From Promethearchaeia archaeon (GTDB lineage Archaea > Asgardarchaeota > Lokiarchaeia > Sigyniarchaeales > SOKP01): a DNA stretch of 64,000 bases. Positions 4,134 to 63,593 of the stretch are shown here, in pieces; position 1 is the first letter of the stretch; every line of letters begins with the position of its first letter. The DNA lies in NCBI GenBank assembly GCA_029856145.1, contig JAHQWK010000001.1, positions 32,001-96,000 of the forward strand, in the 5' to 3' direction. Position numbers and translations under genes: made by a program. Under the pieces are notes generated by a model. The model made no database searches. It was not told the origin of the DNA and saw only the letters and a list, made by a program, of their open reading frames with translations.

Positions 4134-5123
4134 TTATAGTAATAATTCAAATAAATCTATAGCTTTTGGGTGAATTTTGCATTGTTTACTAAATCGACGA
4201 AGAATCCACCAACAAGAAGGACAATATGTTGTAACATAATCAAGATCTTCTCGATTAAAATCAGACATTCTCTTATGTGCAATTTGTTCTATTACGTCGG
4301 TTCGCCCCATCCATCCAGAACCACCACCACAACACCAATGAGGAACATTTACAACATCATATCCAATCTTTTTAAGGATATTATCAATAATCTCATCCAC
4401 TCCTTCTTTACCTCTATTCTTTAATTGACATAAATGTTGTACTCCTACTCTACCTGATTTACGTCCATTTGAAGGTTTCAAGTAATCAGAAATATATTTT
4501 ACTTCAGCATTTAGACCCTCCATTTCATTTTTAAAAAGATAATAACAAGCAGGGCACAAACAAATTATTTCTTTAAATTTTCTTGTATTAAAAATCTCTC
4601 TATTCTCCTTTACACATATTTCATATTCATTTCTTAATCCACTGATTTTAAGGTGCCATCCACAACAGATTTCCGTATCCAAAATAGTGAAATCAATCTC
4701 TTGCTGTATTAGATATTGAAGAGCATGTTGCGTGTACTGAGGAATTCTTATCGTAGAAAGACAACCCATAAAAAAAAGAGTATCTGATTCGCTTGAAATT
4801 CCTTTATATCTTTTTATTCGCATTTTATTAGTAGGATAGGGCGATCTATATTTTTCAAAATATTCACGCATTTCATTAATTCCTTCGAATGAATTTCCAT
4901 CTTCAATATATTTTTGTTTTAATGAAATTCGTTCACTTTCAGTCTCACATTCTCCACAATGAACACAATTATAGAGTTTATAATAATCATCTGAGCTAAA
5001 TTTAAAAGTGTCTTTTTTACTAAGAAGATCCTTTACTGATTCATCATTGATGAAATTTTTTGAATCAACCTCATCAGTGGGGTAATTCTTTCTTCCTACT
5101 ATTCGTTCTTTTATTGTAATCAC
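4134..5123 (-). CDS. Fe-S oxidoreductase with two CCG domains (HdrD/GlpC-like)
   Basis: CVHCGEC, FMGC, EICCG, CPAC, HLC, CCGGG and YCPSC motifs. True start may be ATA at 5114. Confidence 0.85.
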   Translation of the reverse strand: MITIKERIVGRKNYPTDEVDSKNFINDESVKDLLSKKDTFKFSSDDYYKLYNCVHCGECETESERISLKQKYIEDGNSFEGINEMREYFEKYRSPYPTNKMRIKRYKGISSESDTLFFMGCLSTIRIPQYTQHALQYLIQQEIDFTILDTEICCGWHLKISGLRNEYEICVKENREIFNTRKFKEIICLCPACYYLFKNEMEGLNAEVKYISDYLKPSNGRKSGRVGVQHLCQLKNRGKEGVDEIIDNILKKIGYDVVNVPHWCCGGGSGWMGRTDVIEQIAHKRMSDFNREDLDYVTTYCPSCWWILRRFSKQCKIHPKAIDLFELLL

Positions 5124-5293
5124 CTATTAATTTCAAATTTATGTTAATAATTAAAGATTTATGTTAAAGATTATAAGATTTATAAAGAAAACTGAATTCT
5201 AAAGCGATAGTTTATATTATTTTGAAGCTTATTTGTATAATTAGGAAACATTATGAATCTATTAGCTATAATAAGATTAAACTCCAAATAACG

Positions 5294-6400
5294 ATGATTG
5301 AAGATTTATTAATTATTAATGAATCAGGAGCACTTTTATATAATTGGCATCCAGAAGGTTATAAAGGCAACATGAACGATGATTTACTTAGTGGCTTCTT
5401 GACTGCGATTAATAGTTTTGCCACTGTAGAAAGGGGCGAGGATCTAAAGTCTCTTAAGATGAAAGAAACTCAAATTATTTTTGAAAAGTATGAAGAGTTT
5501 TTCCAAAAAATAACCTTTGTGATTACTACTAAAAATGAGGAATTAATTGAATTATTACATGCAGTTATTCATGAAATTATGGAAAGCTTTGCAAAACTTT
5601 TTAGCGAAAGCCTTAATAAAAAATTTAATGGTTTGGTATCAGAATATCAAATATTTGATAATTATGTTAAGCAAATAATTAACTCACATGGTTTGGATAT
5701 ATTAAATGACTCTATAAAGAAAATTGATATGGATACACCTTTAAAAGCCATTATGTTTCTCGAACCGAAAGGAGGTAATGTCTACTATATCCACGCTAAA
5801 CAATATGTTAACAAAGATAAAATCAGTTTTCTCATTCCTCTGATCATAAATTCTTCGAAATTATTGTACCAAAATAATCTTAATGAAAAATTATATTGGA
5901 TTCTTCTTAATACTGTTCGTAATGAAAATCTAATAGTCGAACCTCGGAATAACATTCTGATTGCAAAACAATATCAATTATCAGAAAATTTTGAAGATGA
6001 ATATTTAGGATTGGAATTTTTCAACGAAAAAGATAAGTATGTCAAAAAGCCTAAAAAATTAATTGAAAAATTTGAAAGTGTAGATTGGAACCCTAAAATC
6101 AAACAAATTTATTTAATAGATATGGTAGGTAAAATATTTTATTCAGAAATTTTTGATAAGGCTTATGATTGTTCCGATTATATTCCAGAGACTATAAGCT
6201 TTTTGACAGCTTCAAAGAAAGCAAGTGAAGAAATCTATAATAGAATATTATTTAATGCAAGTATTGGTGGAGAAAAATTAGCTACTATATGTATGAATTT
6301 TAATAACTTTGCTTTAACTTTGATTGGTAAAATTCAGGATTTTACCGATTATAAAGTAATTCAAAAGACTTGTCTGGACATTTATCAACAATTAATATGA
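5294..6400 (+). CDS. Multi-module longin/roadblock-like protein (Asgard eukaryotic-signature type)
   Basis: N-terminus MIEDLLIINESGALLY...DDLLSGFLTAINSFA resembles longin domains; two later segments open with similar strand-turn-strand motifs. Start chosen at ATG 5294. Confidence 0.6.
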   Translation: MIEDLLIINESGALLYNWHPEGYKGNMNDDLLSGFLTAINSFATVERGEDLKSLKMKETQIIFEKYEEFFQKITFVITTKNEELIELLHAVIHEIMESFAKLFSESLNKKFNGLVSEYQIFDNYVKQIINSHGLDILNDSIKKIDMDTPLKAIMFLEPKGGNVYYIHAKQYVNKDKISFLIPLIINSSKLLYQNNLNEKLYWILLNTVRNENLIVEPRNNILIAKQYQLSENFEDEYLGLEFFNEKDKYVKKPKKLIEKFESVDWNPKIKQIYLIDMVGKIFYSEIFDKAYDCSDYIPETISFLTASKKASEEIYNRILFNASIGGEKLATICMNFNNFALTLIGKIQDFTDYKVIQKTCLDIYQQLI

Positions 6401-6527
6401 TATAAATTGTATATAACTAAAATTAGTTTAAATTATAAATGAAAGATTCATATTTGGGATTATTATATTATAAAATTATATAGATTTTAAATTCAATAAA
6501 ACAAACTAAAATTAGGAGAAATTTTAA

Positions 6528-7583
6528 ATGTCCGCTCTTGAATTATGGATTGAATTAATGATATTACAAACAATAATAGGTTATTGCTTTGTTTTGGCAA
6601 ATGATTTCATCGGAATATATAATATAAGAGATCTAAATCTCATGAAGGGAGATTTTGTTATAGTCAAATATCATAAGAGATTTGGATGGATTGAAGTTAC
6701 TATTTTTTACGCTTTATTTGCTCAGTGCATGTACATGCTTGCTCAACATATCATCGCTTCTGATCCATTATTACTAATTCCCTCCGGTGTTTGGTCACAT
6801 ACTTGGATCGGAGGTTTAATTGCCACTATTTTAGTAAGTTTTAAGTTTATTGTTGCTCGATTTAAAAAAGATAGTATCTATTTATATGGCAAATACATTG
6901 GCCCTATTGGATTTTTAGGGTGGAGTCTATCTCACTGGACAAGTCTTTATAACTTTTATTTTGTCGTATTACCATATTGGCAGTCTTTAGGGCGCTCAAC
7001 TATAATTGCACCTTCTTCCTTTATATGGGCAGCTATTATTCCATTTATAGGGGGTGCTGGACTATTCCTTTTAGTTCTTTTTAAAAGAGGCTCAACCTTA
7101 AAAGAAAAAACACGCTTTGCATTCAATCAGATTGCCTTTCTGCTTCATGGAGTTACTTTTGGATATGAAAAATCCGCCAAGGAGCTACTTGGGACACCAA
7201 CCTTATTCAAATATGTTGTACCAAGAACTTACGAATTTATTGAGAAGATGATGACTATGTCAGGATTGAATATGAGAAAATTAGAAAAATTGAGTCTATC
7301 TGATGCCTTAAATGAATTTATAAAAATGGCAGAAAAAATTGGGATGGCAGAAAAAGTTAAGGTAAAATGGGAGTCAGAAAAATCTTTTACAATTGAATCT
7401 GTAAATTGTTCAACAGCCCAAGTTAGAAGTGTTATGACAAAGGAAGAATTAACTAATGCTGTTTGTCCATGGGCCATATTTGCTGCTTCTATCGCAAACA
7501 AAATAACTGCAAAAGAATTAAGAATGGAGCCTTCAGAATTTAATGAAATTGGAGCTATTACAAAATTAACTTTAGTAGATTGA
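6528..7583 (+). CDS. Membrane protein with His-containing TM bundle fused to a V4R/MetOD1-like C-terminal domain
   Basis: About 5 hydrophobic segments with YHKRFG, SHTWIG and SHWTS; soluble C-terminal domain with SVNC...VCPW. Confidence 0.6.
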   Translation: MSALELWIELMILQTIIGYCFVLANDFIGIYNIRDLNLMKGDFVIVKYHKRFGWIEVTIFYALFAQCMYMLAQHIIASDPLLLIPSGVWSHTWIGGLIATILVSFKFIVARFKKDSIYLYGKYIGPIGFLGWSLSHWTSLYNFYFVVLPYWQSLGRSTIIAPSSFIWAAIIPFIGGAGLFLLVLFKRGSTLKEKTRFAFNQIAFLLHGVTFGYEKSAKELLGTPTLFKYVVPRTYEFIEKMMTMSGLNMRKLEKLSLSDALNEFIKMAEKIGMAEKVKVKWESEKSFTIESVNCSTAQVRSVMTKEELTNAVCPWAIFAASIANKITAKELRMEPSEFNEIGAITKLTLVD

Positions 7584-7614
7584 ATATTTAATAAAAATAG
7601 AAAATTTTTTTTTT

Positions 7615-7770
7615 TTAATCTTCTTTTAATTTTACATCAGTTCGCTGAACTCCTACTTCCTTATTGCTTGGTATAGGAGATCCACAATGATCTCTTAACC
7701 TTTCGCTATCTTTAAATGCTTTATCAAGTTCGTCTTCTAATTCATCATCAGTTACTTCTTTATCTGACAT
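7615..7770 (-). CDS. Small acidic hypothetical protein (51 aa)
   Basis: Manual: MSDKEVTDDELEDELDKAFKDSERLRDHCGSPIPSNKEVGVQRTDVKLKED*. A TATA-like CTTAAATA lies ~22 nt upstream. Below the ORF-track cutoff. Confidence 0.55.
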   Translation of the reverse strand: MSDKEVTDDELEDELDKAFKDSERLRDHCGSPIPSNKEVGVQRTDVKLKED

Positions 7771-7887
7771 AATAAATAAAGAGAATCTGTACTATTTAAG
7801 GATTTTATTTATAAAAAATTGACCTTAGATATCAAACCATTTTCTAAAAATTAAGAAAAATCAAAGAAATAATAATATTAAAAAAAT

Positions 7888-8253
7888 TTACACGTTAAAA
7901 TATTCAGAAACAGCCTTCTCTTTTTCAATAGATCTCCTTTCAGGAACAGCTATGTAATCTTTCTTAATCGTCTCATAAAAATCTTCACGCATATATAAAT
8001 TGCAATAACAAGCACCAAATTCTTTTACATCAAGAGGAGCATAATTACATGGACATATTAAATCCCTATCTAATTCTCTTTTTCCTGATGCTAAACGACA
8101 TGGACAAGATTGGTAACCTAAATTAATCTTATTATCCACTAATCCATCTATCAAATCATTAAAAGTATTGCTATCCATATTTAAGATCCAGTTGTTTTTT
8201 TCACTTACTTGTTCAACATATTTAGTCATACCTTCCTTAGATTCCATATCCAA
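7888..8253 (-). CDS. Ferredoxin:thioredoxin reductase catalytic subunit-like
   Basis: CPCR...CPC...CYC signature. Confidence 0.92.
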   Translation of the reverse strand: MDMESKEGMTKYVEQVSEKNNWILNMDSNTFNDLIDGLVDNKINLGYQSCPCRLASGKRELDRDLICPCNYAPLDVKEFGACYCNLYMREDFYETIKKDYIAVPERRSIEKEKAVSEYFNV

Positions 8254-8254
8254 T

Positions 8255-8566
8255 TTAATTACCTCCAGATTTCACTAATTCCTCATATTTGCCTGGGTTG
8301 TATCCAACAACAAAATCATCATCACAAATCATAAAAGGATAAGAGATTCTAGATTGATAATTTTCTCGCAAGTGGGCTAAAATTTTCGATTTTTCTTCAA
8401 ACTCAATTTTATCTACATCCACATATTTGTATTGGACATCACGATCCTTCAACCAAGCTTTACATTTTTTGCACCACATACACGTAGATAAGGTTAGAAT
8501 GGTTACATCTCTACTTTTATTTGAACCCTCAACTGTCTGGGCTAATTTATCAATAATTTCAGACAT
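8255..8566 (-). CDS. Glutaredoxin/NrdH-like redoxin
   Basis: CMWC motif, SYP cis-Pro, VVGY; directly adjacent to the FTR gene. Confidence 0.9.
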   Translation of the reverse strand: MSEIIDKLAQTVEGSNKSRDVTILTLSTCMWCKKCKAWLKDRDVQYKYVDVDKIEFEEKSKILAHLRENYQSRISYPFMICDDDFVVGYNPGKYEELVKSGGN

Positions 8567-8604
8567 AATATAATTTACTCCTTATTTTTAAATAACTTTT
8601 TGCT

Positions 8605-10025: not shown

Positions 10026-10045
10026 AATGGTAATTGGATTAAAAA

Positions 10046-14537: not shown

Positions 14538-16442
14538 TTAAATACCTAATTTTTCCCTATTCTTCTCAATATGGGCTAGCATTGCATCGACGGCTTGAAT
14601 TGGATCAGTTTCAACATGCAATATTCCACCTGTTAAATCTTTACAATCTTCGGTTAAGAGTTTAACTAAATCGGTACCTCCAGTGACTGTAGGTACTGGA
14701 TTGACATATGTATATAGACCAAATGCTAAAGCGAATATAGCATCAATCGTGGCTTTCTGCTCCATATATTCTGGAGCTGCTGCTACTACTGGTAAATCTG
14801 AAATTGGTACGCCACCAAGTGCAGCAGAGATAGCTCCTATCAAATCGGCAACTCTACCTGTATCTGTGCATGTTCCATAACTAAGAACTGGAGGAATACC
14901 TAATTTTTCACAAACAGCTTTAAGTCCAGGTCCAGCCATATCCTTTGCTTCTGGTACACATAATCCTCCAACTTGTAAAGCACCGTTACCGCACCCCATT
15001 GATAATACCAAAACATCTCTTTTAATTAATTCTTTAGCCACTTGAATTGTATGCACATCTTGTCCATAATCTCTAAGTGTAGTACAAGATATTAATCCGG
15101 CAATTCCTCGAATAGTGCCATTTTTAATTACATCTAGTAATGGATCAAGTGTCCCTCCAAGAGCAGCAAGAATACTTTCACTCGAAAATCCAACTACAGC
15201 TTCATTCATGTCTAAACCCATAATAGGTTCCACACTTGCTTTACGTTCCTTGAAATTATCAATTGCCATTTGAATTAATGTCGCTGCTTGCGCTTCAGCT
15301 TTTTCAGGTTTATAATCCACTCGTTCAGTTATGCCCTCAAAAACCACGACTTCTGAAACCGGAATTAACTTGAATTTATATTTTTCAGCATATATAGGGT
15401 CAATTGGCATACAACAATTCATATCACAGATAAAGGCATCAATGCAGCCACTTGCCAAAATTGCTTCTTGCATAATCCAATTTCCTGTAAATCCATAAAA
15501 AACATCATCCATTTCCCATCTTTGTATCATTTCTTGTCCAGTCTCAATATTTGCTAGAATTCTTAATCCTTTTGCCCCAACTGCCTTCGCCTTTTCTTGC
15601 CATTCAGATTTTCGTGCAAGCTGGACCATTGCAAATCCTAGAAATGGTTCATGCCCATTTGGAAGTATGTTTACATAATCTGGGTCTAATACTCCTAGAT
15701 TAACTCTCATTTTATGTGGTCTGGGAATATTAAATAAAATATCCTGAGTGAATTCATTAACAATTTGGCTTTGATAAGCCATCGCAATCCCAAGCCTCAT
15801 TGCTTTAAGAGCTAAACTTGCATAATATCCATCAACATTTGTAAGGCAAGAGCTTGTTGAGAACATCATTTCACCATAAATTCCGCCTGGGAATATTCCT
15901 AATTTTTTCCATACTTCTTGTCTTTCGGGTGGTGCTAATTTCTCAACAATTTTACTTTGTTCATCATAAGGTATATTAAAATCTTCCTTTGCAAAATTAT
16001 ATAATCTAAGTGCAATATCTTTTTCTGAACCATACGTATCTAAACCAAGACGCCCAACAAAACTTTTTAGTTTCTCGGGTTCAGAAATTTTAAAAGGAGT
16101 TAGACCTTCTACCGTTGCCTTTAAGGTTTTTAAAGTTGTTTCAGTATGATAATGATAAGTAGATGCCCCCATTACATTTCTAAGAAGCATCATTCGCATT
16201 GCCATTCCATCCGCGGTAATTCCACATACACCACGTTTATCTATTGATGAGTCAGCTCTACATGGACCATTAGAACATAAATCACAACGAGCCCCTTTTA
16301 AACAAAATGGACATCGTTTATCAGGATCTCCTCCAAAACCTTGTGCTTCAAATCGATCCCAGATATTATTCATACCATCTTTTTTAATTCTCTCATAAAC
16401 TTTTTGAACAGATTTATGATAAGAAATTCTTTCGTTTTCCAT
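14538..16442 (-). CDS. cooS: Ni-CODH family protein (CooS), atypical Glu-substituted form
   Basis: CPFC...CDLCSNGPC...GVCG, NGHEP, IETGQE, DMNC, SCTT, GCG, GTCTD and EQKA motifs. Confidence 0.92.
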   Translation of the reverse strand: MENERISYHKSVQKVYERIKKDGMNNIWDRFEAQGFGGDPDKRCPFCLKGARCDLCSNGPCRADSSIDKRGVCGITADGMAMRMMLLRNVMGASTYHYHTETTLKTLKATVEGLTPFKISEPEKLKSFVGRLGLDTYGSEKDIALRLYNFAKEDFNIPYDEQSKIVEKLAPPERQEVWKKLGIFPGGIYGEMMFSTSSCLTNVDGYYASLALKAMRLGIAMAYQSQIVNEFTQDILFNIPRPHKMRVNLGVLDPDYVNILPNGHEPFLGFAMVQLARKSEWQEKAKAVGAKGLRILANIETGQEMIQRWEMDDVFYGFTGNWIMQEAILASGCIDAFICDMNCCMPIDPIYAEKYKFKLIPVSEVVVFEGITERVDYKPEKAEAQAATLIQMAIDNFKERKASVEPIMGLDMNEAVVGFSSESILAALGGTLDPLLDVIKNGTIRGIAGLISCTTLRDYGQDVHTIQVAKELIKRDVLVLSMGCGNGALQVGGLCVPEAKDMAGPGLKAVCEKLGIPPVLSYGTCTDTGRVADLIGAISAALGGVPISDLPVVAAAPEYMEQKATIDAIFALAFGLYTYVNPVPTVTGGTDLVKLLTEDCKDLTGGILHVETDPIQAVDAMLAHIEKNREKLGI

Positions 16443-16513
16443 AAATTACCACTTTTTACATATTTTTTAAAATTGATTTCTTTAAAATATAATATCATTT
16501 AAGTTTAAATTTA

Positions 16514-16523
16514 AACATGTTCA
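16514..16523 (-). promoter_or_regulatory. Candidate operator TGAACATGTT in the cooS / oxidoreductase divergent promoter region
   Basis: Same 10-mer as 14418-14427, again about 10 nt upstream of a TATA-like element (CTTAAAT) on the minus strand. Confidence 0.5.
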
Positions 16524-16593
16524 TAAGGGTATTACTTTAAGATTACAATATATAATAAAAACTTTAAAATAAGATGCAAAAACTAATAATTCT

Positions 16594-17946
16594 ATGAAAG
16601 TTGTAATAATAGGGAATAATGTTTCTGGGACTTTTACTGCCCAAAACATAAGAGCTCTCAAGGATGATATAGAAATTGATATATTTACGCAAGAAAGTTA
16701 TCCTTACTATACTAGAGTCAATTTACCAGAATTAATATCAGAAAAAGTTACAATTGATGACTTAGTCGTTTTTAAAGAAGATTGGTATAAAAATAGGCAA
16801 TTAAACTTACACTTAAATAAAAAAGTAAATAAGATCGATTCTAATGCAAAAATAATACAAATTGAGGGTGATAGTATGCCTATTGATTATGATAAACTTA
16901 TTTTAGCACTTGGAAGCGTACCCAATATTCCTCCTATTAAGAACGCGGTTGAAATGAAAGATCAAAAGAAAGGAGTATTCACATTACGAAGTATTGATGA
17001 TGCTTTAGAAATACGAGATTATCTCAAAAAGTCCGCAATTGAAAAAGCTATTATTATTGGTGGAGGTTTACTAGGCTTAGAATTAGCTAATCAAATTAAA
17101 GATTGTAATTTGAATACAACAGTAGTAGAATTCTTTCCTCGATTATTACCAAGACAACTAGATGAAGAATGTGGTGCTATGTTAAAAGAAGAAATTGAAA
17201 ACAGAGGAATCAAAGTAGTTTTAGATGCAGCTACTGAAGAAATATTAGGAAATGGTAGAGTTACAGGAATTAAATTAAAAGGTGGAGAGCAATATGATAC
17301 AGATGTGGTTTTAATCCAAGCAGGTATTAGCCCAACAATAAGATTAGCTAAAGAAGCAAATATCCAAACAAATAGGGGAATTATTGTTAATGATTTTTTA
17401 GAAACCAGTGAAAAAGATATCTACGCTGTTGGTGATTGTATAGAATATAAAAATCAAATTTGGGGTATTATCCCTGCTTGCATGGAACAATCAAAAATAG
17501 TTGCTGCCTCTGTACTTGGGTTAAAAAAAGTAGATTATAAAGGAACAACTCCAAAAAACACGCTTAAAATAGTTGGATTAGAATTAACTTCAATAGGAAT
17601 TATAGATCCTACAAAAGAAGAAGGCGGTGGTTGGGAAATCTTGAAAAAAGCTGATAAAAAAGATTGCTGTTATCAGAAATTAGTGTTAAAAGGGAGTAGA
17701 CTAAAAGGCGCCATTTTATTCGGTGAAAATAAAGCAATTTCTTATGTTTATAATAAAATGGAAGAAGATGTAGATAGGGAAGATTTAAGAAAATTGTTAG
17801 AATTGTATATTTATGTATGTAATAATTGCGGAAAGGAATATGATGAGGCTAAAATGGGCATTCTTTTTAAAGATTTGCCAGAAGATTTCAAATGTCCGGG
17901 ATGTAATGGACCTAAAGAAAAATTTAAGAAAAAAGATAATTCTTAA
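16594..17946 (+). CDS. NAD(P)H:rubredoxin oxidoreductase-like flavoprotein with C-terminal rubredoxin domain
   Basis: FAD and NAD Rossmann motifs (GGGLLGLE, IYAVGD); C-terminal CNNCG...LPEDFKCPGC. Confidence 0.9.
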   Translation: MKVVIIGNNVSGTFTAQNIRALKDDIEIDIFTQESYPYYTRVNLPELISEKVTIDDLVVFKEDWYKNRQLNLHLNKKVNKIDSNAKIIQIEGDSMPIDYDKLILALGSVPNIPPIKNAVEMKDQKKGVFTLRSIDDALEIRDYLKKSAIEKAIIIGGGLLGLELANQIKDCNLNTTVVEFFPRLLPRQLDEECGAMLKEEIENRGIKVVLDAATEEILGNGRVTGIKLKGGEQYDTDVVLIQAGISPTIRLAKEANIQTNRGIIVNDFLETSEKDIYAVGDCIEYKNQIWGIIPACMEQSKIVAASVLGLKKVDYKGTTPKNTLKIVGLELTSIGIIDPTKEEGGGWEILKKADKKDCCYQKLVLKGSRLKGAILFGENKAISYVYNKMEEDVDREDLRKLLELYIYVCNNCGKEYDEAKMGILFKDLPEDFKCPGCNGPKEKFKKKDNS

Positions 17947-17972
17947 ATATATTAATAGAGAGGTGATAAACA

Positions 17973-18122
17973 ATTTCTATATATCGATGTAAGAGATGTA
18001 ATTATCTTTATATTAACGATGAAAAGGATAAACCTTTCGAGGAATTAGATGAAGGAGAATTTAGATGTCCTAAGTGTCGATCTTCAAAAAAATTTTTTGT
18101 GAGGAAAGAATCCCCTTCCTAA
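17973..18122 (+). CDS. Rubredoxin-like protein (49 aa), ATT start
   Basis: Manual: (M)SIYRCKRCNYLYINDEKDKPFEELDEGEFRCPKCRSSKKFFVRKESPS*. In-frame TAA at 17967; GAGGTGA ends 6 nt before the ATT. Confidence 0.75.
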   Translation: MSIYRCKRCNYLYINDEKDKPFEELDEGEFRCPKCRSSKKFFVRKESPS

Positions 18123-18260
18123 TTTTTTTCATTATTATTTAAAGCTTATAAATATTTGAAATGGATTATCTTTATAAAATATTAAATTAATATTTTTAAT
18201 ATATTTTCAATTTAAATCCATAAGAGTCTTCAATTTAATCAATAATAAAGGTGAAAGAAT

Positions 18261-18398
18261 ATGGCAGTTTGGGAATGCACCGCGTGTGGTTATCTCTATG
18301 ATGAGGAAAAAGAAGGAACTAAATGGGAAGACCTCCCTGATGATTGGACATGTCCAGTCTGTGGTGTCGGCAAAGACATGTTCGAAAAAATAAGTTAA
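18261..18398 (+). CDS. Rubredoxin
   Basis: Manual: [45 protein letters not shown]; AGGTGA SD. Missed by the ORF track. Confidence 0.95.
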
Positions 18399-18576
18399 TC
18401 AAATCAATACTCTTCTTCAATTTTTTTTTATTAATTTTATTCAATTTCAAGTAATTTAGTTGTAACTTAAAATACTGTAATATTCTGCAAAAATTTTTTA
18501 AATATTTCAATTTTTAAATATAAGAGTAAAAAGTAAAAATAAAATCTAAAAACAACAGACCTAATGAATATTTAAT

Positions 18577-18957
18577 ATGAATGAAATAAAAAAGATTATT
18601 GACGAATTGGGAATTGCTGCACTAGAAGCTAACACAAAAATTGCTGGACTCGCAGTTGTGTCTGATTCGGGAAAGTTAGTTTTCCAGACAGACAATTGGG
18701 ATCTAACCAATCACACGAACATGATACTGGATGTCATTAAAGGAGACCGCACTTTTGTTTTGAATGATGGAGAATTTTCGGTTGTTGAAACTAAAACTGA
18801 AGGAATTATTGGAACCAGTCATAGCGGGATGGGACATATAATATTCGCTCTATTTCAAGGAGGTGTGCTTGTATCATATGCCATGCCTCAAGCAGATCCA
18901 CCCAAAGTATTAACTTTTCTCAAAAATTTTGCGATGAGATTGAATGGGAAGGTATAA
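18577..18957 (+). CDS. Asgard-type profilin
   Basis: GLAVVSDSGKLVFQTDNWD...FSVVETKTEGIIGTSHSGMGHII...GVLVSYA matches the pattern of Lokiarchaeal profilins as recalled (QTENW, IGTNxxGxGH). Confidence 0.82.
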   Translation: MNEIKKIIDELGIAALEANTKIAGLAVVSDSGKLVFQTDNWDLTNHTNMILDVIKGDRTFVLNDGEFSVVETKTEGIIGTSHSGMGHIIFALFQGGVLVSYAMPQADPPKVLTFLKNFAMRLNGKV

Positions 18958-19343
18958 TTGAAAATTATGCTTGTTCAATCACCTTCATACTTTCTTCTTT
19001 TGTAACTGTTGATTTTTTCAACACTCTTTTAGCAAGATAAATTTAACAAGTTATCATCTCTTTTAAGGGGTGGCCCTATAAAGAATATTAAGTATTAATG
19101 CAACATAGTTTCGCTCTCTTGGATTGTGAGGACTAAATCATTTGCAAGATGGTGAACAATTTGTAGGTAAAGATATGTTTGAAATAATTGAATGACTAAC
19201 AATTCAATATACTTTTTTAATTTTTTATTTATTGCTTAATTTTCTGCAAAATTTTATAATATATAGAATATAAGTTTTTAACTTGATTCAAATTAATATT
19301 ACAAAATAACCATTAAATCCTATTAAATTAAGGTGAAATTAAA

Positions 19344-20549
19344 ATTACACATTTAGAATTAATGAAAGATGTCTATTATGTTGGTTATATAGATTGGGAA
19401 GTAAGGAATTTTCATGGATATTCTACTAATCGAGGTAGTAGTTATAATGCATATATAGTTAAAGGAGAGAAAAATGTACTGATTGACACTATTAAACGTC
19501 CTTATTTTGATTACTTTTTGGAAAACATTAAAGAAGTGTGCGATCCTTCTGAAATTGATTATTTCATTACAAACCATGTTGAGTTGGATCACTCTGGGTC
19601 ATTTCCATTAATTCTTAAGTATCTTCCCAATACTGAATTACTTGCTTCAAAGAGTGGGGTTGATATTTTAAAAGCCCACTTTCATGGGGAAGTTGATGAA
19701 GATTCATTTAATAAAATTAGAGCTGTCGAGGAAGGGGATACTTTAGACATTGGAAATGGTAAAAAGTTTACATTTGTTCCCATTCCGATGATTCACTGGC
19801 CTGATTCCATGGTGTCTTTTATGACTGATGAAAATGGGAAAAATATACTTTTTTCTAATGATGCTTTTGGACAACATTATGCAACATCCAAACGTTGGGA
19901 TGATGAAAATGATCTTGCTGAAATTTTTCAGGAAGCAGAAAAATATTATGCGAACATTTTACTTCATCTTTCTGGGCTAATAGCAAAGGCAATACCAAAG
20001 GTTGGAGCATTACCAATCGAAGTTATATGTACCTCTCATGGGATTTGTTGGAGAAAGCATATCCCTGAAATTTTAGAAAGATATACCAAATGGAGTAAAG
20101 GGGAAATTGATGAAAAAAGTGTACTCATCGTATACGACACAATGTGGGAAAGCACGGCAAAAATCGCCAAAGCCTTAACTAAGGAAATTAAACATCGAGG
20201 AATTCCGGTAAAAAGGTATAATTTAACTCATGCTGATTATTCAGACGTAATCACAGAAGCTATGAAATCAAAAGCTATCATAGTTGGGAGCCCTACCCTA
20301 AATAATGGATTATATCCTACAGTTGCAGAATATCTTTCATATCAAAAAGGACTGAAACCTATGAATAAGGTTGGATTAGCTTTTGGTTCATACGGTTGGG
20401 GCGGAGGTGCTGTAAAAGAAATTGTGGAATTAATGAAGGCGGCAAAGATTGATGTTATGGAAGAAACCATAGAGATTAAATTTGTACCAAAGCCAGAAGA
20501 TTTAGATTTCAAAGAAATTGTTGATAAATTAATTAAGAAAATGGACTAA
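19344..20549 (+). CDS. fprA: Flavodiiron protein FprA (O2/NO reductase)
   Basis: GSSYNAY, NHVELDHSG, HWPD, SNDAFG, flavodoxin domain and FGSYGWGGG. Start may be ATT 19344 (behind AGGTGA) rather than ATG 19362. Confidence 0.93.
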   Translation: MTHLELMKDVYYVGYIDWEVRNFHGYSTNRGSSYNAYIVKGEKNVLIDTIKRPYFDYFLENIKEVCDPSEIDYFITNHVELDHSGSFPLILKYLPNTELLASKSGVDILKAHFHGEVDEDSFNKIRAVEEGDTLDIGNGKKFTFVPIPMIHWPDSMVSFMTDENGKNILFSNDAFGQHYATSKRWDDENDLAEIFQEAEKYYANILLHLSGLIAKAIPKVGALPIEVICTSHGICWRKHIPEILERYTKWSKGEIDEKSVLIVYDTMWESTAKIAKALTKEIKHRGIPVKRYNLTHADYSDVITEAMKSKAIIVGSPTLNNGLYPTVAEYLSYQKGLKPMNKVGLAFGSYGWGGGAVKEIVELMKAAKIDVMEETIEIKFVPKPEDLDFKEIVDKLIKKMD

Positions 20550-20563
20550 AAAAGGTTAAGAAA

Positions 20564-21742
20564 ATGGATTTTTCACTTTCAGAAGAACAAAAAGTTTTAC
20601 AAAAAAAGGCAAGAGAGTTTGCAATTCGTGAAATACTACCAGTTGCACGAAAATATGATGAATCTGAAGAATTTCCTCTACCAGTTATTAAAAAAGCTTG
20701 GGAAGAAGGATTATTGAATTTAGGAATCCCTAAAGAGTATGGTGGCCCTGGTTATAGCTTATTAAGCTCTTGTGTTGTTGTTGAGGAAATCTCATCTGCA
20801 TGTCCTGGCATTGCTACTTCTATTTTTGATAATAATCTCGGTGCTGAACCTATAGTTATCGGAGGAAATGAAGAACAAAAGCAGAGAATTTTAACTGAAC
20901 TAGTTAATGAGTTTAAATTGATCGCATTTGCCACATCTGAGCCAACGATGGGTTCTGACGTCGCAGGAATGAAATGTCTAGCAGAAAAAGATGGAGATGA
21001 ATATATTTTAAATGGAAATAAGTTTTGGATCACAAATGGAGGATATGCTGATTATATCACTGTATTTGCAACGATTGATCCTGAGAAAAAACACAAAGGG
21101 ATAGCAGCATTTATAGTAGATGCTAAAAGCGAAGGAGTAAAATTAGGTAAACATATACCAAAATTAGGTCAAAGATCATCAAATACTGTATCAGTTGGTT
21201 TAAAAGATGTACGAATTTCTAAAGAAAATGTTCTTGCTAAACCGGGAAGAGGATTTGTATTAGGTATGCAAACCTTTGCTCATACTCGCCCAGCGATAGG
21301 TGCTTTTGCATGTGGTTGTGCGCGTTCTGCGATGGAATATTCCATTGACTACGCACATAAAAGAGAGGCTTTTGGAAGACCAATTGGAAATTATCAAGTA
21401 ATTCAAGAAAAAATAGCCAATATGTATAAAGATATTGAAGCAGCACGGCTATTAACATATAAAGCAGCGTGGGACGCTGATCAAGGTATAGATAATAATT
21501 TGAGTTCTTCAATTGCCAAAGCTTTCGCTTCGGATGTTGCGATGAATGTAACAACAGAAGCAGTGCAAATATTTGGGGGATATGGATATCTAAGAACATA
21601 TCCAGTTGAAAAACTATTTAGAGATGCGAAATTGTACCAAATATATGAAGGAACAAGTGAGATTCAAAGAATCGTTATCTCTCGATTTGTTATGAAAGGA
21701 TATGAACATGCAATGCCTTTTCTTGGAAAAAAAAGAGCTTAA
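20564..21742 (+). CDS. Acyl-CoA dehydrogenase
   Basis: SEPTMGSD, LNGNKFWITNG, QIFGGYGY and IYEGTSEIQR motifs. Confidence 0.95.
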   Translation: MDFSLSEEQKVLQKKAREFAIREILPVARKYDESEEFPLPVIKKAWEEGLLNLGIPKEYGGPGYSLLSSCVVVEEISSACPGIATSIFDNNLGAEPIVIGGNEEQKQRILTELVNEFKLIAFATSEPTMGSDVAGMKCLAEKDGDEYILNGNKFWITNGGYADYITVFATIDPEKKHKGIAAFIVDAKSEGVKLGKHIPKLGQRSSNTVSVGLKDVRISKENVLAKPGRGFVLGMQTFAHTRPAIGAFACGCARSAMEYSIDYAHKREAFGRPIGNYQVIQEKIANMYKDIEAARLLTYKAAWDADQGIDNNLSSSIAKAFASDVAMNVTTEAVQIFGGYGYLRTYPVEKLFRDAKLYQIYEGTSEIQRIVISRFVMKGYEHAMPFLGKKRA

Positions 21743-21778
21743 AATTATTTTTTTATATTAATTTTAATTTTTTCTCTC

Positions 21779-22333
21779 CTAAATTACCATTTTTTTTAAT
21801 ATTATTTTTGCTGTTACTAAGAAATTATCACATATTAGAGTTGGTTTTATTCCAAGAGAATGCAATTCTTCTAGGTGTTTATCACCATGTCCAGTAGTAA
21901 GAAAAATTGTTCTGCAACCTGCATTTATCCCAAATTGTATATCTGAAGGGTGATCACCAATCATCCATGATCGGCTAATATCGATGTTAAACTCATTAAT
22001 GATTTCAGAAATAAATTTTGTTTTAGGTTTCCTACATTCACAATTATCCTCCTTTAAATGAGGACAGAAATATGTCTTTAAAATTTCTATTTTTTGTTTT
22101 TTCAAGATGTGTATTAAATGATTATTGAAATTTTGAAAATCTTGTTTTGTATAATAACCTCTCCCTATTCCAGATTGATTTGTTACAATAAGAAAGAGAA
22201 AATCATTCTGGAGTAATTTTAATCCTTCAATCACCCCATCTAATAATTCAAAATCTTCTATTTTATAAGCATAATTTTTGTCTTCGATTAATGTACCATC
22301 TCTATCCAAAATAATTGCTTTTTTTTTAGTCAC
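21779..22333 (-). CDS. HAD IIIA phosphatase (GmhB/histidinol-phosphatase-like)
   Basis: LDRDGT, VTNQSGIGRG, CPH...CECRKP and MIGD motifs. Confidence 0.9.
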   Translation of the reverse strand: MTKKKAIILDRDGTLIEDKNYAYKIEDFELLDGVIEGLKLLQNDFLFLIVTNQSGIGRGYYTKQDFQNFNNHLIHILKKQKIEILKTYFCPHLKEDNCECRKPKTKFISEIINEFNIDISRSWMIGDHPSDIQFGINAGCRTIFLTTGHGDKHLEELHSLGIKPTLICDNFLVTAKIILKKMVI

Positions 22334-22377
22334 TATTTAATAGATTCCCTCTATTTTTTATTCAAGATTATTAAGTC

Positions 22378-23733
22378 TTAAAAAAATATAAATATAATAA
22401 ATGCGAGATAGGCTATTCCTAATATGATATGTAGAAGCGCAAATAAACCACCAATCTTTAATAATTTCTTGTAATTCATATCATCAACACAATATTTTGT
22501 AGAAAGTTCTAATGTCATCATATCAGCAGCGCTACCTTGTGGTAAGAAATTACCCCCTAAATTTATCCCTAAAATAAAAGCTATTAACAGAGGAACTGAG
22601 GAAAATCCAGTACTTATTAAAACTTGAATAATAGGTATGAAAAGGACTGTGACAGGAAGATTATCAAGAAACCCTGAGAGAATAGATGTTATAATTAGTA
22701 TTAAAACACACAAGAAAAATAAATTAGCGGGTGCTATACTCACTACAAAATTTTTTATGATATCAATGAGCCCCACTTTTTCAAAACAGAATACCAGAAC
22801 AAATAAACTTATAAAAAAGAATGGTAATTTAAAATCAACTTTTCTAAAGTAATAAGAAATATCAGGTTTTTTTCTACCAGACTCACTTCTCCTCGGGTTA
22901 ATAAATACAAATAAAAGCATTCCAAGAAGTCCTACAAACAAAATATCCGGAATAATAATTAACAAGATGAAAAAGATAAATAAAGTGCCTAAATTTCTGT
23001 AAAAAACCTTACGATTAATTGGTTCTTCTATTATTATTAATTCATGTTCCTCTATATGTTCACTTTCTAAAGGCTCATCATATTCGTCGCAGTGAGGAAT
23101 CCAAATTTCCGTTAAGTGTTTTCTGAGAACAAAATAATCTAAAAGAGATAAAGTCAGTAATGTTCCGATAATAAAATAAATCGAAAGGTATGTAAAAAAC
23201 CAAGTTGTTGAAAGCGTAAATCTATTCGCTATTAAAATATTCTGCGCAGACCCAAAAGGAGTCAGAGTTGAGGCAAGATTAATACAGATTGTCATTCCTA
23301 ACAATATTGGAGTAGGATTTATTCTCATTTTTTCACTCGTACTTATAATCATTGGAATGAAGATAACTGCAACTGAAATATCTTCAATGAAAGCAGCGCT
23401 TAAAGTTGAAATTAAACAAATGACCCAAAAAAACTTTCGGGTATTAGTATGGAATTTTTTCGTTATTTTTAAAGCAATTTCTTGAAAAATAAGCTGTTCC
23501 TCTAATATTACAACAATTGTAAATAGACAAATAAGGAAAAAAATGACTGGCCAATCTATTGCCAAAATGAATTCTTCAATAGTAAAAGGCGTTGGTGAGA
23601 AAAGGAAGGTAGCAGTAGCTGCAGCAAGCATAGCTAACACACTATAAGTTAAAAAATCTGTTTTCTCACGAAAAAGCGCTATAATAACAATAATAAAACA
23701 GAAGATTACAAATATTTGTAAAAAGAAAATCAT
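22378..23733 (-). CDS. ArsB/NhaD/SLC13 (IT superfamily) permease
   Basis: Polytopic; LSAAFIED, LTPFGSAQN, LSGFLDNLP and NLGGNFLPQGS motifs. Confidence 0.85.
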   Translation of the reverse strand: MIFFLQIFVIFCFIIVIIALFREKTDFLTYSVLAMLAAATATFLFSPTPFTIEEFILAIDWPVIFFLICLFTIVVILEEQLIFQEIALKITKKFHTNTRKFFWVICLISTLSAAFIEDISVAVIFIPMIISTSEKMRINPTPILLGMTICINLASTLTPFGSAQNILIANRFTLSTTWFFTYLSIYFIIGTLLTLSLLDYFVLRKHLTEIWIPHCDEYDEPLESEHIEEHELIIIEEPINRKVFYRNLGTLFIFFILLIIIPDILFVGLLGMLLFVFINPRRSESGRKKPDISYYFRKVDFKLPFFFISLFVLVFCFEKVGLIDIIKNFVVSIAPANLFFLCVLILIITSILSGFLDNLPVTVLFIPIIQVLISTGFSSVPLLIAFILGINLGGNFLPQGSAADMMTLELSTKYCVDDMNYKKLLKIGGLFALLHIILGIAYLAFIIFIFF

Positions 23734-23859
23734 TATTTATCTTAGGGAATGGGATATATAGATAATTCCAATATTAACAATTGTGTTTTAAAAGCTTAAA
23801 ATTTCATTATTTTAAAATATTTAAAAAATAAAAAAAAAGAATAATAGGTAATTTCAAAT

Positions 23860-24246
23860 TTAACTTTTCCATAAAAAGTGTAAATTACAATATTCTCGTG
23901 CCCAAAGGCCTTCTGGATTAGCAACAGAAAAAGTTGCTTTAGGTTCAGCTCCAGGTTTTAAGAATCTTCTTTCGTAACATCCGTCTTTACAAATTATTTC
24001 AATCCACATAATATAATGCTCATCGGTCATAGGATGAGGAGTTCCCATTGAGATCCCTATATCAACAGTGACTTTATTACCTTCAACAGTTATTTTAGGA
24101 ACATGCTTTTCTGATTTCCATTCAGCAATTTGTTCTTCCATAAGTTTCATTGGTTGACCACAACAAATAGTTTCTGGGACACCTGGATTCAATATTTCAA
24201 TTACTTTTCCACAAATACTACATCTATATATTTCTTTTTGTTTCAT
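23860..24246 (-). CDS. dfx: Desulfoferrodoxin (2Fe superoxide reductase)
   Basis: CSICG...CCGQPM, EKHVP, HPMTDEHYI and YCNLH motifs. Confidence 0.95.
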   Translation of the reverse strand: MKQKEIYRCSICGKVIEILNPGVPETICCGQPMKLMEEQIAEWKSEKHVPKITVEGNKVTVDIGISMGTPHPMTDEHYIMWIEIICKDGCYERRFLKPGAEPKATFSVANPEGLWAREYCNLHFLWKS

Positions 24247-24334
24247 AATTATTTCACGTGTTCTTTTTTTATCTTAAAATCAGATAGTTTAATTTTTAAA
24301 AATTTTGATTTTAAATTAAAAATTCATAGTTTTT

Positions 24335-24925
24335 CTAGAAATTTTCACATTTCTTTCTATAGTATGCTCTAGGATGATCACAAGATGGGCATTTGAAATC
24401 CTTAGGTAATTCATCCATTTCTACTTCATAACCGCATTCCATACACACCCATACAACTTTCTTTCCTCGTTTAAAGAAAGCATCATCACCAATTAATTTT
24501 AAAAGCTTCCCATATCTCTCAGAGTGATGTTTTTCAGCAACCATAATTGCACGTACTCTTTTGACAATATCGGGATACCCTTCTTTATCAGCAGTCTTAG
24601 CAATATCAGGATACAGTGTTTGCCATTCCATGTTTTCTCCCTTTATTGCAGATTTTAGATTTTCAATTGTGGTTCCATGGGTTGTTGGAAATTCAGCATC
24701 GGGGAGAACTTTCATATCATCAAATGGTTCTTCTTTCTTGAACTGTTGTAGCATTTTATAAAACCAGCTGCCATGTTCTTTCTCTTGATCCGATGTCTCG
24801 TCAAAAATTTTAGATATAAATGCATATCCTTCTTTTTTAGCAATTTTAGAAAAATAATTGTATCTATTTCTAGCTTGTGATTCACCGACATATGCGGTAT
24901 ATAATTTTTTAGGTGTTTCTTTCAT
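24335..24925 (-). CDS. rbr: Rubrerythrin
   Basis: GESQARNRY, EKEH, EKHH and C-terminal CMECG...CPSCDHP. Confidence 0.95.
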   Translation of the reverse strand: MKETPKKLYTAYVGESQARNRYNYFSKIAKKEGYAFISKIFDETSDQEKEHGSWFYKMLQQFKKEEPFDDMKVLPDAEFPTTHGTTIENLKSAIKGENMEWQTLYPDIAKTADKEGYPDIVKRVRAIMVAEKHHSERYGKLLKLIGDDAFFKRGKKVVWVCMECGYEVEMDELPKDFKCPSCDHPRAYYRKKCENF

Positions 24926-25095
24926 AGTTTTTAACCTCCATTTTTAAAATTGGAAATTCGATATATATGAATATATTTGGATTTAAATTATTTCGCCTAT
25001 TTTTTAACTTTTTTACTTATAATTTAAAGAAAAAGCATATTTGATATGAATACAATAAAAGTTATAATAAACTAGTCTAATTTTGCCTTCATAAT

Positions 25096-38575: not shown

Positions 38576-38794
38576 CTAAAATCCGCCTGCAATGTGTGGG
38601 AGTATAATAATCTCGTCTTCTTTCCCTATCTTCGTTTCTGGTGTTGCTTTTTTACCATTTACTATGATTCCGAAAAACTTGTCTTCAAGATTAAGTTCTC
38701 GTAATAAATCAGCTACGGTCATTGTTTTATCAGGCGAAAATGTTTCATACAATCCAGTATCTAATAATTCTGAAACTTGTTTTATAACAACCAC
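38576..38794 (-). CDS. MoaD/ThiS/SAMP ubiquitin-like protein ending GG-F
   Basis: TVADLLREL, IVNG and ILPHIAGGF*. True start may be ATA at 38785. Confidence 0.88.
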   Translation of the reverse strand: MVVIKQVSELLDTGLYETFSPDKTMTVADLLRELNLEDKFFGIIVNGKKATPETKIGKEDEIIILPHIAGGF

Positions 38795-39044
38795 CTAATA
38801 TTTTTAATTACTTATTATATGTTTGTAATAATATTTAATATTATTTCTTTAGTTTTATTCGTTTCAGTAAGCAGTGAATTCTTGTTTTTGAAACACTTCT
38901 TTAGACTTATTTTAATCATTCAGCGATTATATTCATATTTATTTGAATTAAACACATTTTTTTTAAGCTAAATTAAAATCCAATTTTTTTTATTTTTACT
39001 TTAATTTCTATATATAGGCTTTACTTTTTTGAGGAGATAATAAA

Positions 39045-40697
39045 ATTATTGAAGAAGAAGAATTCATCGAATACACAGAGTTTTTAGACAAACTAAGAAA
39101 ATATGAGTTTAAAATAAAGCAAATCAAAGATCCAATAGAGAAAAATAAAACAATACAAGAAATGGTTTCAGAGTCATTTAATTTTTTTAATGAGATTGCT
39201 CAATCTGGAGAATTTTTTGAAGCAGGGGAATTTCTTTATTCTGTTGCTGAAATAATGGAAAATATTGATTTTTCTGAAGCTCTTAAATTATATAATGAAA
39301 TAATTGAATTGTATAAAAAGCAAATTATAGATTATAAACTTCAAGCGAAATTACGTGAAATTGCTGAATTATACTTAAGAATTGCGGAAATTTATCGTGA
39401 GAAAATTAGAGATTTTCAATCAGAAAAAAAAAATATTCTAAATAGTATAAAATTTTTAAAGCAAGAAAGTGATCTTTTAAAAGAATTTAATGAAACTAGA
39501 AAAATCGCTCAAAATTTTCAAAATATCGCAGATTTATTCTTAAAGTTCTCTGATTTCAAGAATGCTATAAAATTTTATGAAAAAGTTATCAATATTTCTA
39601 AAAATCATAACTATTTTGACATGCTATCTTACTCTTATCAGCAAATTGGATCCTGTTATGAAGAAATCGACGATTATAACAAATCGCAAGATACAATTTT
39701 AGATGGTGTAGAATTCTTCTCTACTTTAACAACTAAATTTGAAGAGAAAAATGATAATTTAACTCTTGCTCAGATTTATCAAATCTTAAAAAACTTATAT
39801 AAAATTTTAGATAAGCAAGATCAATACATAAATTTCTCTAAAAAAGAAGCAGGAGCATATATAGACTTAGCAGAAACACTAGAAAAGACACAAGAAAACT
39901 ATTATAAAATTGCGCGGTATTATCGAGGAGCTGGATTATGTTATCAAGACATTCAAAATAATCTAATTGAATGCGCCTCATGTTTTGTGTTAGCTGGTAA
40001 CTTTTCAAAAAAAATTGAAGATTATAACCAAGCAGCGACGAATTTTTTTGATGGGGCTAATGTTTTTAAAGAAATGGATAATTTTGAAATGGCATATAAA
40101 CATTTTGTAGAAGCAGGTGATAATTATTGGAAGATTGGAAGTATTAACGAATCTACAGAAAGTTATTTAAACGCTTATGATATTGCAATTGAAGGGGAAT
40201 TAGAATTTAATAGATTCGGCATTTTTAATCAAATTATAAGAGGGTTAAATAAGATCGCTGAAGAAGGATTAAAAAACAAACAATTCTTTACAGCAGCCAC
40301 TTTGATTTTAGAAAGTATAAAATTTTATGAGCAGCTTGATACCGCAAAAGATTTCCTTCTAAGAGAAATGGTTAACAATTTGTATCGTTATTATTATCGA
40401 GCAGCAAACTTAAAGAAGATTGGATCTTCTCACATCGTTCTTAGTTATGTTTTGGCCTCTATTTCATGTATTTTAAATGGTAAATTAGATAAGGCTTGGA
40501 AAGTTATCTCTGAAATAGAATCTGAAAAAACTACGGTAAAAAAATACAAAGAAATAATAAAAATAATGATTGAAAGAGTTTCTGAAGGAAAAAAGGTTGA
40601 ACTAAATAATTTCCCTTTCGATTTAAAGAGAATTATTGAATCCTCGGAAGAAATAATGTTTCTTCTAAAACTTTTTAAGGGTTTTAAAATAAAATAA
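39045..40697 (+). CDS. TPR/alpha-SNAP-like helical repeat protein
   Basis: Tandem helical repeats (AATNFFDGANVF, AYKHFVEAGDNY). The frame stays open 39 codons upstream of ATG 39162 to ATT 39045, behind GAGGAG. Confidence 0.75.
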   Translation: MIEEEEFIEYTEFLDKLRKYEFKIKQIKDPIEKNKTIQEMVSESFNFFNEIAQSGEFFEAGEFLYSVAEIMENIDFSEALKLYNEIIELYKKQIIDYKLQAKLREIAELYLRIAEIYREKIRDFQSEKKNILNSIKFLKQESDLLKEFNETRKIAQNFQNIADLFLKFSDFKNAIKFYEKVINISKNHNYFDMLSYSYQQIGSCYEEIDDYNKSQDTILDGVEFFSTLTTKFEEKNDNLTLAQIYQILKNLYKILDKQDQYINFSKKEAGAYIDLAETLEKTQENYYKIARYYRGAGLCYQDIQNNLIECASCFVLAGNFSKKIEDYNQAATNFFDGANVFKEMDNFEMAYKHFVEAGDNYWKIGSINESTESYLNAYDIAIEGELEFNRFGIFNQIIRGLNKIAEEGLKNKQFFTAATLILESIKFYEQLDTAKDFLLREMVNNLYRYYYRAANLKKIGSSHIVLSYVLASISCILNGKLDKAWKVISEIESEKTTVKKYKEIIKIMIERVSEGKKVELNNFPFDLKRIIESSEEIMFLLKLFKGFKIK

Positions 40698-62725: not shown

Positions 62726-62747
62726 AAAAAATATTGTACAATAACAA

Positions 62748-62954
62748 TTATAATGAGAGATATTTTTTTCTAATTATCTTTCTTTCATTAAATAATTTTG
62801 ATTTCTTTTTCTTCAAATATGTAATTAAGTAAAAAGCAGCAATCATTATAGCTATAGAAAGGATAATACCAATAATTCCGGCGATATAATCATTGGTAAT
62901 CCAACTTAAGATAGGAATCCAGGGAGAGAATAAACTTTCAAGCCATTCTTCGCT
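62748..62954 (-). pseudogene. Start-less C-terminal fragment of a membrane protein (possibly a Co/Ni ECF accessory, PDGLE-like)
   Basis: Manual: *SEEWLESLFSPWIPILSWITNDYIAGIIGIILSIAIMIAAFYLITYLKKKKSK...SL*; a TM helix with a basic tail, convergent with cobN. Confidence 0.4.
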
Positions 62955-63101
62955 TTAAATGTCAAGAATTTACTAGGATCTTATGATGATATTCTATCTT
63001 TAATAAAAAAGAGTTATTAGTAAATTGATACAATACTTTTTCTAAAAAATTAATTTTAAATTTGTATAATTTATTTTCTAATAAACTTCTGGTGACCAGA
63101 T

Positions 63102-63593
63102 ATTCACTTAGTCCTAACTTTTTTCCATCAAATTAATGGCCCGAGTGTTTTATTATCATATCCAGATGAAAAATTAGAAGAAGAGATTATCAGCTCTCTA
63201 ATTAAATTCTTTGACCTGGAAATCAACGAAACGTTTTTTGAAATCGTTCTTATCACAAAAAAAAAGAAAATTATTAATTTTCATTTTGAGATCCCGTCTG
63301 AGTGGGCACGTGGCAAAAAAGAATTTGCTATGCTCTCTTTGATAATGAAAATAGAATATAACAGTGAAGATCTTTATGCATTCCTCGTAGACTCGAGCTA
63401 TAAAATCCTAAAAACAGAGAATGTTTATAAAGCATTTTATAAGGATTCAGATTTTCATTATAATGATATAGAAATCGATCTTAACTATGAGATAATAAGA
63501 AAAATACTCTTTGATTGTTTAACTAATTTAATATCAAGAATTGAGGATAAAATTAAAGGATTAGAGAAAAAGGATCCTTTTCCTTTTACTTAA
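63102..63593 (+). CDS. Stand-alone uDENN/longin-like protein, probable ATT start
   Basis: The frame of the 63330 ORF is open upstream to 63096: (M)HLVLTFFHQINGPSVLLSYPDE...FHFEIPSEWARGKKEFAMLSLIM...VYKAFY. Paralogous to the N-terminal domain of 10774-11934; GGTGA ends 6 nt before the ATT. Confidence 0.78.
   Translation: MHLVLTFFHQINGPSVLLSYPDEKLEEEIISSLIKFFDLEINETFFEIVLITKKKKIINFHFEIPSEWARGKKEFAMLSLIMKIEYNSEDLYAFLVDSSYKILKTENVYKAFYKDSDFHYNDIEIDLNYEIIRKILFDCLTNLISRIEDKIKGLEKKDPFPFT

Follow-up and report, generated by a model that had tools for sequence, protein, structure and literature searches.

Many genes of the Promethearchaeia archaeon GCA_029856145.1 very probably begin, to judge from sequence comparison, at ATT, ATA or ATC (ATH; AUH in RNA) placed at a precise distance behind a Shine–Dalgarno (SD) motif. 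This host genome (GTDB lineage Archaea; Asgardarchaeota; Lokiarchaeia; Sigyniarchaeales; SOKP01) has an assembly of 3.55 Mb with 30% GC. Eight of the genes lie in the window, a stretch of 64,000 nucleotides (nt) of contig JAHQWK010000001.1 (positions 32,001-96,000, forward strand; genome contig C9), and a sequence-only reading of the window had proposed SD-guided AUU/AUA initiation in the lineage. A register-specific excess in the genome and the start columns of orthologues, both described below, bear this out. Canonical starts are ATG, GTG and TTG; host family and host genus are the family and genus of this genome, and G- and L-numbers denote compared genomes and loci.

In-frame codons after GGTGA were counted near the 5' ends of about 3,100 stop-to-stop open reading frames (ORFs) obtained with a codon model. 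Where there is no canonical start nearby, ATH occupies 41 of 67 in-frame codons at spacers of 5-6 nt, compared with 32 of 272 farther along the frame (Fisher p = 5e-16) and 6-8% at out-of-frame positions. A second genome-wide count used a graded SD score instead of GGTGA alone; 29 ATH codons were seen at spacer 5 (5.0 expected) and 57 at spacer 6 (5.7 expected). For the two spacers pooled, 86 ATH codons stand behind a strong SD where 11-12 are expected (p ~1e-26), far above chance. The anti-SD was taken from the archaeal consensus (PMC7531240); the 3' end of the host 16S rRNA is absent from the assembly. When SD spacing is tabulated by codon, the ATH excess is sharp and confined to spacers 5 and 6, whereas the ATG peak is broad (4-9). 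The enrichment at spacer 5-6 is about tenfold for ATT and ATA and is also seen, in small numbers, for ATC, ACG and CTG; the same count shows no excess there for TTH, CTH, GTH, AAG or AGG. AT-rich composition is ruled out as the cause by these frame, distance and decoy-codon controls. The second residue after ATH starts resembles that of ATG genes (Ser, Lys).

The excess corresponds to about 75 ATH genes plus 5-8 ACG/CTG genes, or 2.4% of genes. This is a floor, equivalent to at least 1 gene in 40, because only two of the eight window genes pass the strict-score filter; those that fail are short, have a spacer of 7 or carry a weak SD. We estimate the true AUH share at 3-6% of genes. By cross-genus homology, the first canonical codon falls at least 8 codons inside conserved sequence in about 2% of genes, and a stricter start-column caller gave about four clear cases in 196 cross-genus pairs. 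An automated start-column caller produced many false positives and was not used for numbers. In a pairwise test anchored on ATG, against G005 (same genus) and G026 (sister family), the ATG is mostly conserved, since many ATH starts are either shared or badly aligned. About a quarter of strong-SD starts at 5-6 nt are AUH. There is an SD in 18% of host ATG genes, in agreement with the reported rarity of SDs in Lokiarchaea (PMC12993045).

Intact essential genes are affected, namely those of eS26 and uS14 and, by sequence inspection, eL8, eL21, ATPase D and E and Pop5. Likely ACG/CTG starts behind strong SDs were noticed on contigs C26, C19 and C18, in genes for an HdrC-like protein, an ETF-type ferredoxin protein and an AN1 zinc finger; the non-canonical start of the AN1 zinc finger is conserved in G005. 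The first conserved residues are missing from the CTP synthase frame on contig C23 (minus strand, near 64800), which looks like a case of N-terminal frameshift or insert, not of a non-canonical start.

The eight window genes are the following, with candidate start codon, SD and spacer (nt).

4134..5114, minus strand: CCG-domain protein gene; start ATA 5114, SD GGTGA 5124-5120, spacer 5
17960..18122, plus strand: rubredoxin-like gene, 49 amino acids; start ATT 17973, SD GAGGTGA 17960-17966, spacer 6
19331..20549, plus strand: fprA flavodiiron protein gene; start ATT 19344, SD AGGTGA 19331-19336, spacer 7
38576..38795, minus strand: ThiS/ubiquitin-like gene; start ATA 38785, SD GGTGG 38795-38791, spacer 5
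39031..40697, plus strand: TPR/SNAP-like gene, 550 amino acids; start ATT 39045, SD GAGGAGA 39031-39037, spacer 7
50542..51072, minus strand: mobB gene; start ATT 51060, SD GTGTGA 51072-51067, spacer 6
53287..53569, minus strand: ribosomal protein eS26 gene; start ATT 53559, weak SD GCTGA 53569-53565, spacer 5
63091..63593, plus strand: gene of 163 amino acids, uDENN label unconfirmed; start ATT 63102, SD GGTGA 63091-63095, spacer 6

The codons, the SD-like motifs, their spacers and the in-frame stops upstream all stand where the sequence-only reading had placed them, as do its three ATG-started comparisons (2240, 18261 and 36207, spacing 4-9 nt). The TPR site exists too, but its motif, first given as GAGGAG-8nt, is better read as GAGGAGA + 7 nt. 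There are Pfam matches for MobB, eS26, CCG, SNAP/TPR and the fprA domains, and a weak Rubredoxin match; the gene labelled ubiquitin-like matches ThiS (PF02597), while the 63102 gene has no Pfam match at E 0.01, which leaves its uDENN label without Pfam support. Eight AUH-started genes among about 55 is above the genome-wide rate.

It could be argued that translation starts at nearby codons (a GTG inside the SD, a downstream ATG, or a CTG before eS26) and that ATH encodes an ordinary isoleucine. The CCG and ThiS-like genes do have an in-frame GTG three codons upstream of ATA, fprA and mobB have an ATG or GTG six codons downstream (an in-frame ATG after ATT 19344 in fprA, hence the short extension), and some NCBI records of eS26 begin at a CTG that sits three codons before the ATT. 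The rubredoxin-like frame contains no ATG, GTG or TTG, nor does that of uS14, outside the window (contig C8, L471). The first ATG comes 39 codons after ATT 39045 in the TPR/SNAP-like gene and 76 codons after ATT in the 63102 gene, that far into conserved sequence. Altogether, the rubredoxin-like, eS26, TPR, 63102 and uS14 genes, and partly mobB and fprA, are intact conserved genes without a usable canonical codon before required sequence; the MobB match begins at residue 4 of the ATT-started protein. Moreover, the ATG of orthologues falls exactly at the ATH column, and several ThiS-like orthologues lack the GTG. We consider initiation at nearby codons very unlikely.

The ATT codons at 17973 and 19344 recur with identical flanks in three independent ENA assemblies, and the same bases in these three rule out assembly error as their source. 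Public gene calls in the three omit the rubredoxin-like gene and give fprA 343 or 395 residues instead of 401; gene callers thus truncate or miss such genes, as had been predicted. In a relative, GCA_011364925.1, the same eS26 ATT is annotated as Met1 by NCBI, and the eS26 of relatives is annotated from ATT in three NCBI assemblies.

The candidate ATH columns are occupied in relatives almost exclusively by initiator-type codons, and the ATG of relatives stands at the ATH column itself, not downstream. The CCG column has ATG 11, GTG 4, TTG 3 and ATA 1, the last private to the host genome; that of fprA has ATG 13, ATT 4, GTG 1 and TTG 1, the ATT copies forming one clade (support 97/91), so that ATT arose once, within one genus clade. 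The ThiS-like column comprises ATA 12, ATT 5, ATG 6, GTG 1 and TTG 1, several of the genes having no in-frame upstream GTG. The TPR column is ATT or ATC throughout the host family, with the SD conserved. For mobB there are ATG 10, TTG 2, GTG 1 and ATT in G000, G016 and G138, some rows being shifted or unresolved; for the 63102 gene ATG 4, TTG 1 and ATT 2; and for the rubredoxin-like gene ATT 3, GTT 1 (G016), ATG 1 and TTG 1. The eS26 column is ATT in 16 genus genomes and ATA in one, ATG in a close metagenomic relative, and ATG 9, GTG or TTG in other families. For uS14, 28 host-family genomes give ATG 10, TTG 6, ATA 5, ATT 4 and GTG 3. Other ribosomal proteins with ATA/ATT starts outside the window are uL15 of G005 (L062) and uL6 of G084 (L465). 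At internal Met columns, used as a control, initiator-type codons account for 47% of changes, and Leu TTA is common. A binomial test on the codon types (23/24) comes from a hand tally without the shifted mobB rows and has indicative value.

The SD compensates for the codon. An SD score of at least 10 is found in 96% of 47 ATH orthologues, compared with 38% of 45 ATG orthologues, and six genes agree in direction. The distance from SD to codon is equal in the two groups. This equality bears on a further proposal, that an AUG is supplied after transcription (by splicing of a mini-intron, by editing or by a frameshift from an out-of-frame AUG) or that the genes are decaying. Hairpin inserts resembling mini-introns do exist in coding genes of the host family (aIF2-gamma in the host, uS8 in three relatives). 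Equal distances, however, leave nothing to splice, editing would have to change three kinds of third base, AUH starts also occur in relatives that lack the aIF2-gamma insert, and, against decay, the frames remain intact and are conserved across dozens of genomes. We find the proposal scarcely credible.

The ATH excess extends to relatives, with 3.1% in G005 and 2.4% in G067 (another genus of the host family); it falls to 1.2%, four sites, in G026. Other Asgard loci pooled contain a few ATH sites. The outgroup consisted of 77 non-Asgard archaeal loci (1.25 Mb, 1,582 ORFs), in which 14 sites were seen against 11 expected, with no excess below 38% GC either. Among 611 ribosomal-protein ORFs in these loci, 11 were flagged, and none proved on inspection to have an SD-led ATH. 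Start-codon checking looks looser in the host family than in other archaea. The relaxed selection that the sequence-only reading ascribed to the lineage holds against the non-Asgard controls, but it is family-wide, SD-dependent and limited to a few per cent of genes. Other Asgard groups show fainter signs of it; the trait is enriched in the host family and not exclusive to it.

Altered aIF1/aIF2 fidelity had also been suggested as a possible cause; sequence changes are found in aIF1 and not in the initiator tRNA. The host assembly contains aIF1A and aIF2-gamma; aIF1 and aIF2-beta fall in an assembly gap. Loss of either is ruled out, since long runs of neighbours, including an aRF1-like gene, are missing with them. 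In 35 host-family genomes aIF1 starts with ATT, ATC or ATA, as a rule 9 nt behind a GUGA motif. No canonical codon precedes its zinc knuckle in 31 of the 35, and there is only an SD-internal GTG in the other four. The aIF1 start is ATA or CTG in several other Asgard families, and such starts occur in 2 of the 77 non-Asgard loci. The host-family protein carries G-to-F, L-to-A and C-to-S substitutions at columns invariant in the 77 outgroup archaea. No altered initiator tRNA was found among 61 genomes searched: all those found have the anticodon CAU and three G-C pairs, and those of relatives have A1-U72 wherever the ends are uninterrupted. Matches with other anticodons are not tRNAs. With ordinary tRNAs, a start code reassigned through an altered initiator is rejected.

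Several further features of these genes were noted. Initiator tRNA genes in many Lokiarchaeia appear to carry interruptions in the D arm, variable region or T arm, which are non-canonical positions, and are therefore missed by ARAGORN (L408-L414, L416, L419, L420, L426). In the host genus, the SD region of aIF1 contains an in-frame TTG-TGA-TAA start-stop element 3-5 codons before the ATT (L032-L050), which might draw initiation away from the AUU start or modulate it. Some genus genomes also have another, divergent copy of aIF1 (L056 in G006, with an internal stop; L146 in G074). Between the P-loop Gly and Lys codons of the host aIF2-gamma gene (L437, contig C5, about 34199-34228) lies a hairpin insert of 30 nt that contains in-frame stops. 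It is shaped like a tRNA-type mini-intron, and the frame is uninterrupted in four genus relatives; as one of these four shows the ATH excess, the insert is rejected as cause of the AUH habit. In three host-family genera (G160 L475, G195 L459, G177 L463), the uS8 gene is interrupted, always at one site following the AYI codons, by a hairpin of 30-33 nt that contains in-frame stops. This is probably a further mini-intron within a coding region, and the host lacks it.

We think it likely that near-cognate initiation is enabled by exact SD placement combined with loosened start-codon discrimination. During SD-led initiation in archaea, the tRNA probes the P site locally, and aIF1 departs once codon pairing holds the tRNA (PMC6412873); in Sulfolobus, aIF1 reportedly promotes discrimination against non-canonical starts (PMC6237735). 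In the host, a GGUGA-type SD would pair with the 16S 3' end and thereby bring the codon that follows after 5-6 nt (sometimes 7) into the P site; there the ordinary initiator Met-tRNA (CAU) would pair with two of the three AUH bases. With a mismatch at the third base, the pairing should last only where the SD duplex keeps the codon in the optimal register; AUG would tolerate spacers of 4-9 nt and often no SD, whereas AUH would require an SD in exact register. The aIF1/aIF2 check on mismatched codons would be loose in the host family. ATG-to-ATH mutations, favoured at 30% GC, would then be tolerated behind a strong SD and could be gained and lost (fprA, CCG, mobB, uS14). Some genes would retain the weak start (aIF1 and TPR family-wide, eS26 in the genus), probably to limit output. 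The sequences show the codon, its register, the swaps among orthologues, the compensating SD and the ordinary initiator tRNA; from these we infer the initiation itself, its lower efficiency and the loosened aIF1 check.

Several points weigh against this explanation. The aIF1 substitutions are partly common to the sister family, where the ATH excess is weaker, and host-family aIF1 retains both the basic residues of loop 1 and the QGD motif. Loci around aIF1 in other host-family genera contain, when pooled, 4 sites at spacer 5-6 where 3.4 are expected, which is no excess. Related genomes are non-independent samples, and the outgroup loci are mostly ribosomal-protein operons, which skews that control to strong starts.

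Alternatively, fidelity might be normal and each AUH start a selected, gene-specific attenuator yielding about 10% output, the set being controlled by the level of aIF1, itself self-repressing through its AUU start. The conserved weak start of aIF1 in 35 host-family genomes, with ATA or CTG in other Asgard groups, fits this account, as does the retention of ATH over long distances in TPR and eS26; in Staphylococcus aureus, AUU/AUA starts yield about 10% of AUG output (PMC13009471). On the other hand, many starts are labile (the fprA ATT arose once, the CCG ATA is private, uS14 has five codons in one family), AUH genes share no common function, and a tenfold attenuation would be odd for ribosomal and ATPase subunits, which are stoichiometric. 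As a general explanation we judge it rather unlikely. Loosened discrimination with AT-biased mutation is favoured because gains and losses are frequent and stoichiometric subunits are affected; the conserved cases, with aIF1 foremost, could still reflect selected attenuation and feedback, and the two explanations may each be true for different genes. A bolder suggestion, which we put forward tentatively and with considerable doubt, is that the divergent, AUU-started aIF1 sets stringency for at least 100 AUH genes in a large Asgard family, a genome-wide translational dial, within the sister group of eukaryotes, anticipating the control of non-AUG initiation by eIF1.

Bacteria offer the closest parallel. 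AUU/AUA starts behind a strong SD are known for infC, cvfC1, ccpN and citZ in S. aureus, four such sites genome-wide, and for infC and pcnB in Escherichia coli (PMC13009471). As in the infC type, the codon is a near-cognate AUH offset by a strong SD, and a fidelity factor is itself weak-started (IF3 in bacteria, aIF1 in the host family). In contrast to the four S. aureus sites, the host has some 75 at the least, with ribosomal proteins and ATPase subunits among them; it is an archaeon with eukaryote-type factors, and many of its sites are evolutionarily labile. Archaeal SD-led initiation employs aIF1, aIF1A and aIF2 with local scanning, and AUG, GUG and UUG are listed as starts (PMC7531240, PMC6412873, PMC6237735). 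The host family shares the SD core, the factor set and the initiator tRNA (A1-U72, three G-C pairs) with other archaea, but uses AUH. In Haloferax profiling, about 30% of putative alternative sites were near-cognate and were set aside (PMC7261190). The ATT calls in eS26 of relatives are per-gene automatic calls with the alternative initiators of NCBI table 11 (ATT, ATC, ATA, CTG), and no description of their frequency, SD dependence or lineage pattern was found. In the eukaryotic near-cognate hierarchy, AUH, ACG and CUG are used, and AAG and AGG avoided. The host resembles eukaryotes in the codons used and avoided, and its family does so in the weak start of the eIF1 homologue, but the starts are positioned by the SD, not by scanning, and the aIF1 of the family uses a non-AUG codon, not an AUG in poor context. 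Eukaryotic eIF1 is autoregulated through poor start context (Ivanov 2010, cited in PMC6237735).

No paper on an Asgard AUH habit was found in the open-access literature on archaeal and Asgard non-AUG starts; the present analysis contributes a controlled genome-wide count, the rule on register, the evidence that the SD compensates, a comparison with outgroup archaea, and an examination of the initiator tRNA and of aIF1. These results widen the archaeal start-codon set beyond AUG, GUG and UUG, and indicate that the SD, rare in the Lokiarchaeia group, is retained where the codon is weak. The search for eukaryote-like proteins in Asgard proteomes relies on automatic calls, in which several per cent of the genes of this abundant host family, small ones above all, would be shortened or missing. 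The host-family aIF1 may serve as a natural variant, with reporter sites, for how start-codon stringency evolved before eukaryotic scanning.

Window positions 14538-25000 form an oxidative-stress cluster comprising a prismane protein, an NADH oxidoreductase, two rubredoxin-type genes, fprA, desulfoferrodoxin and rubrerythrin, two members of which are ATT-started.

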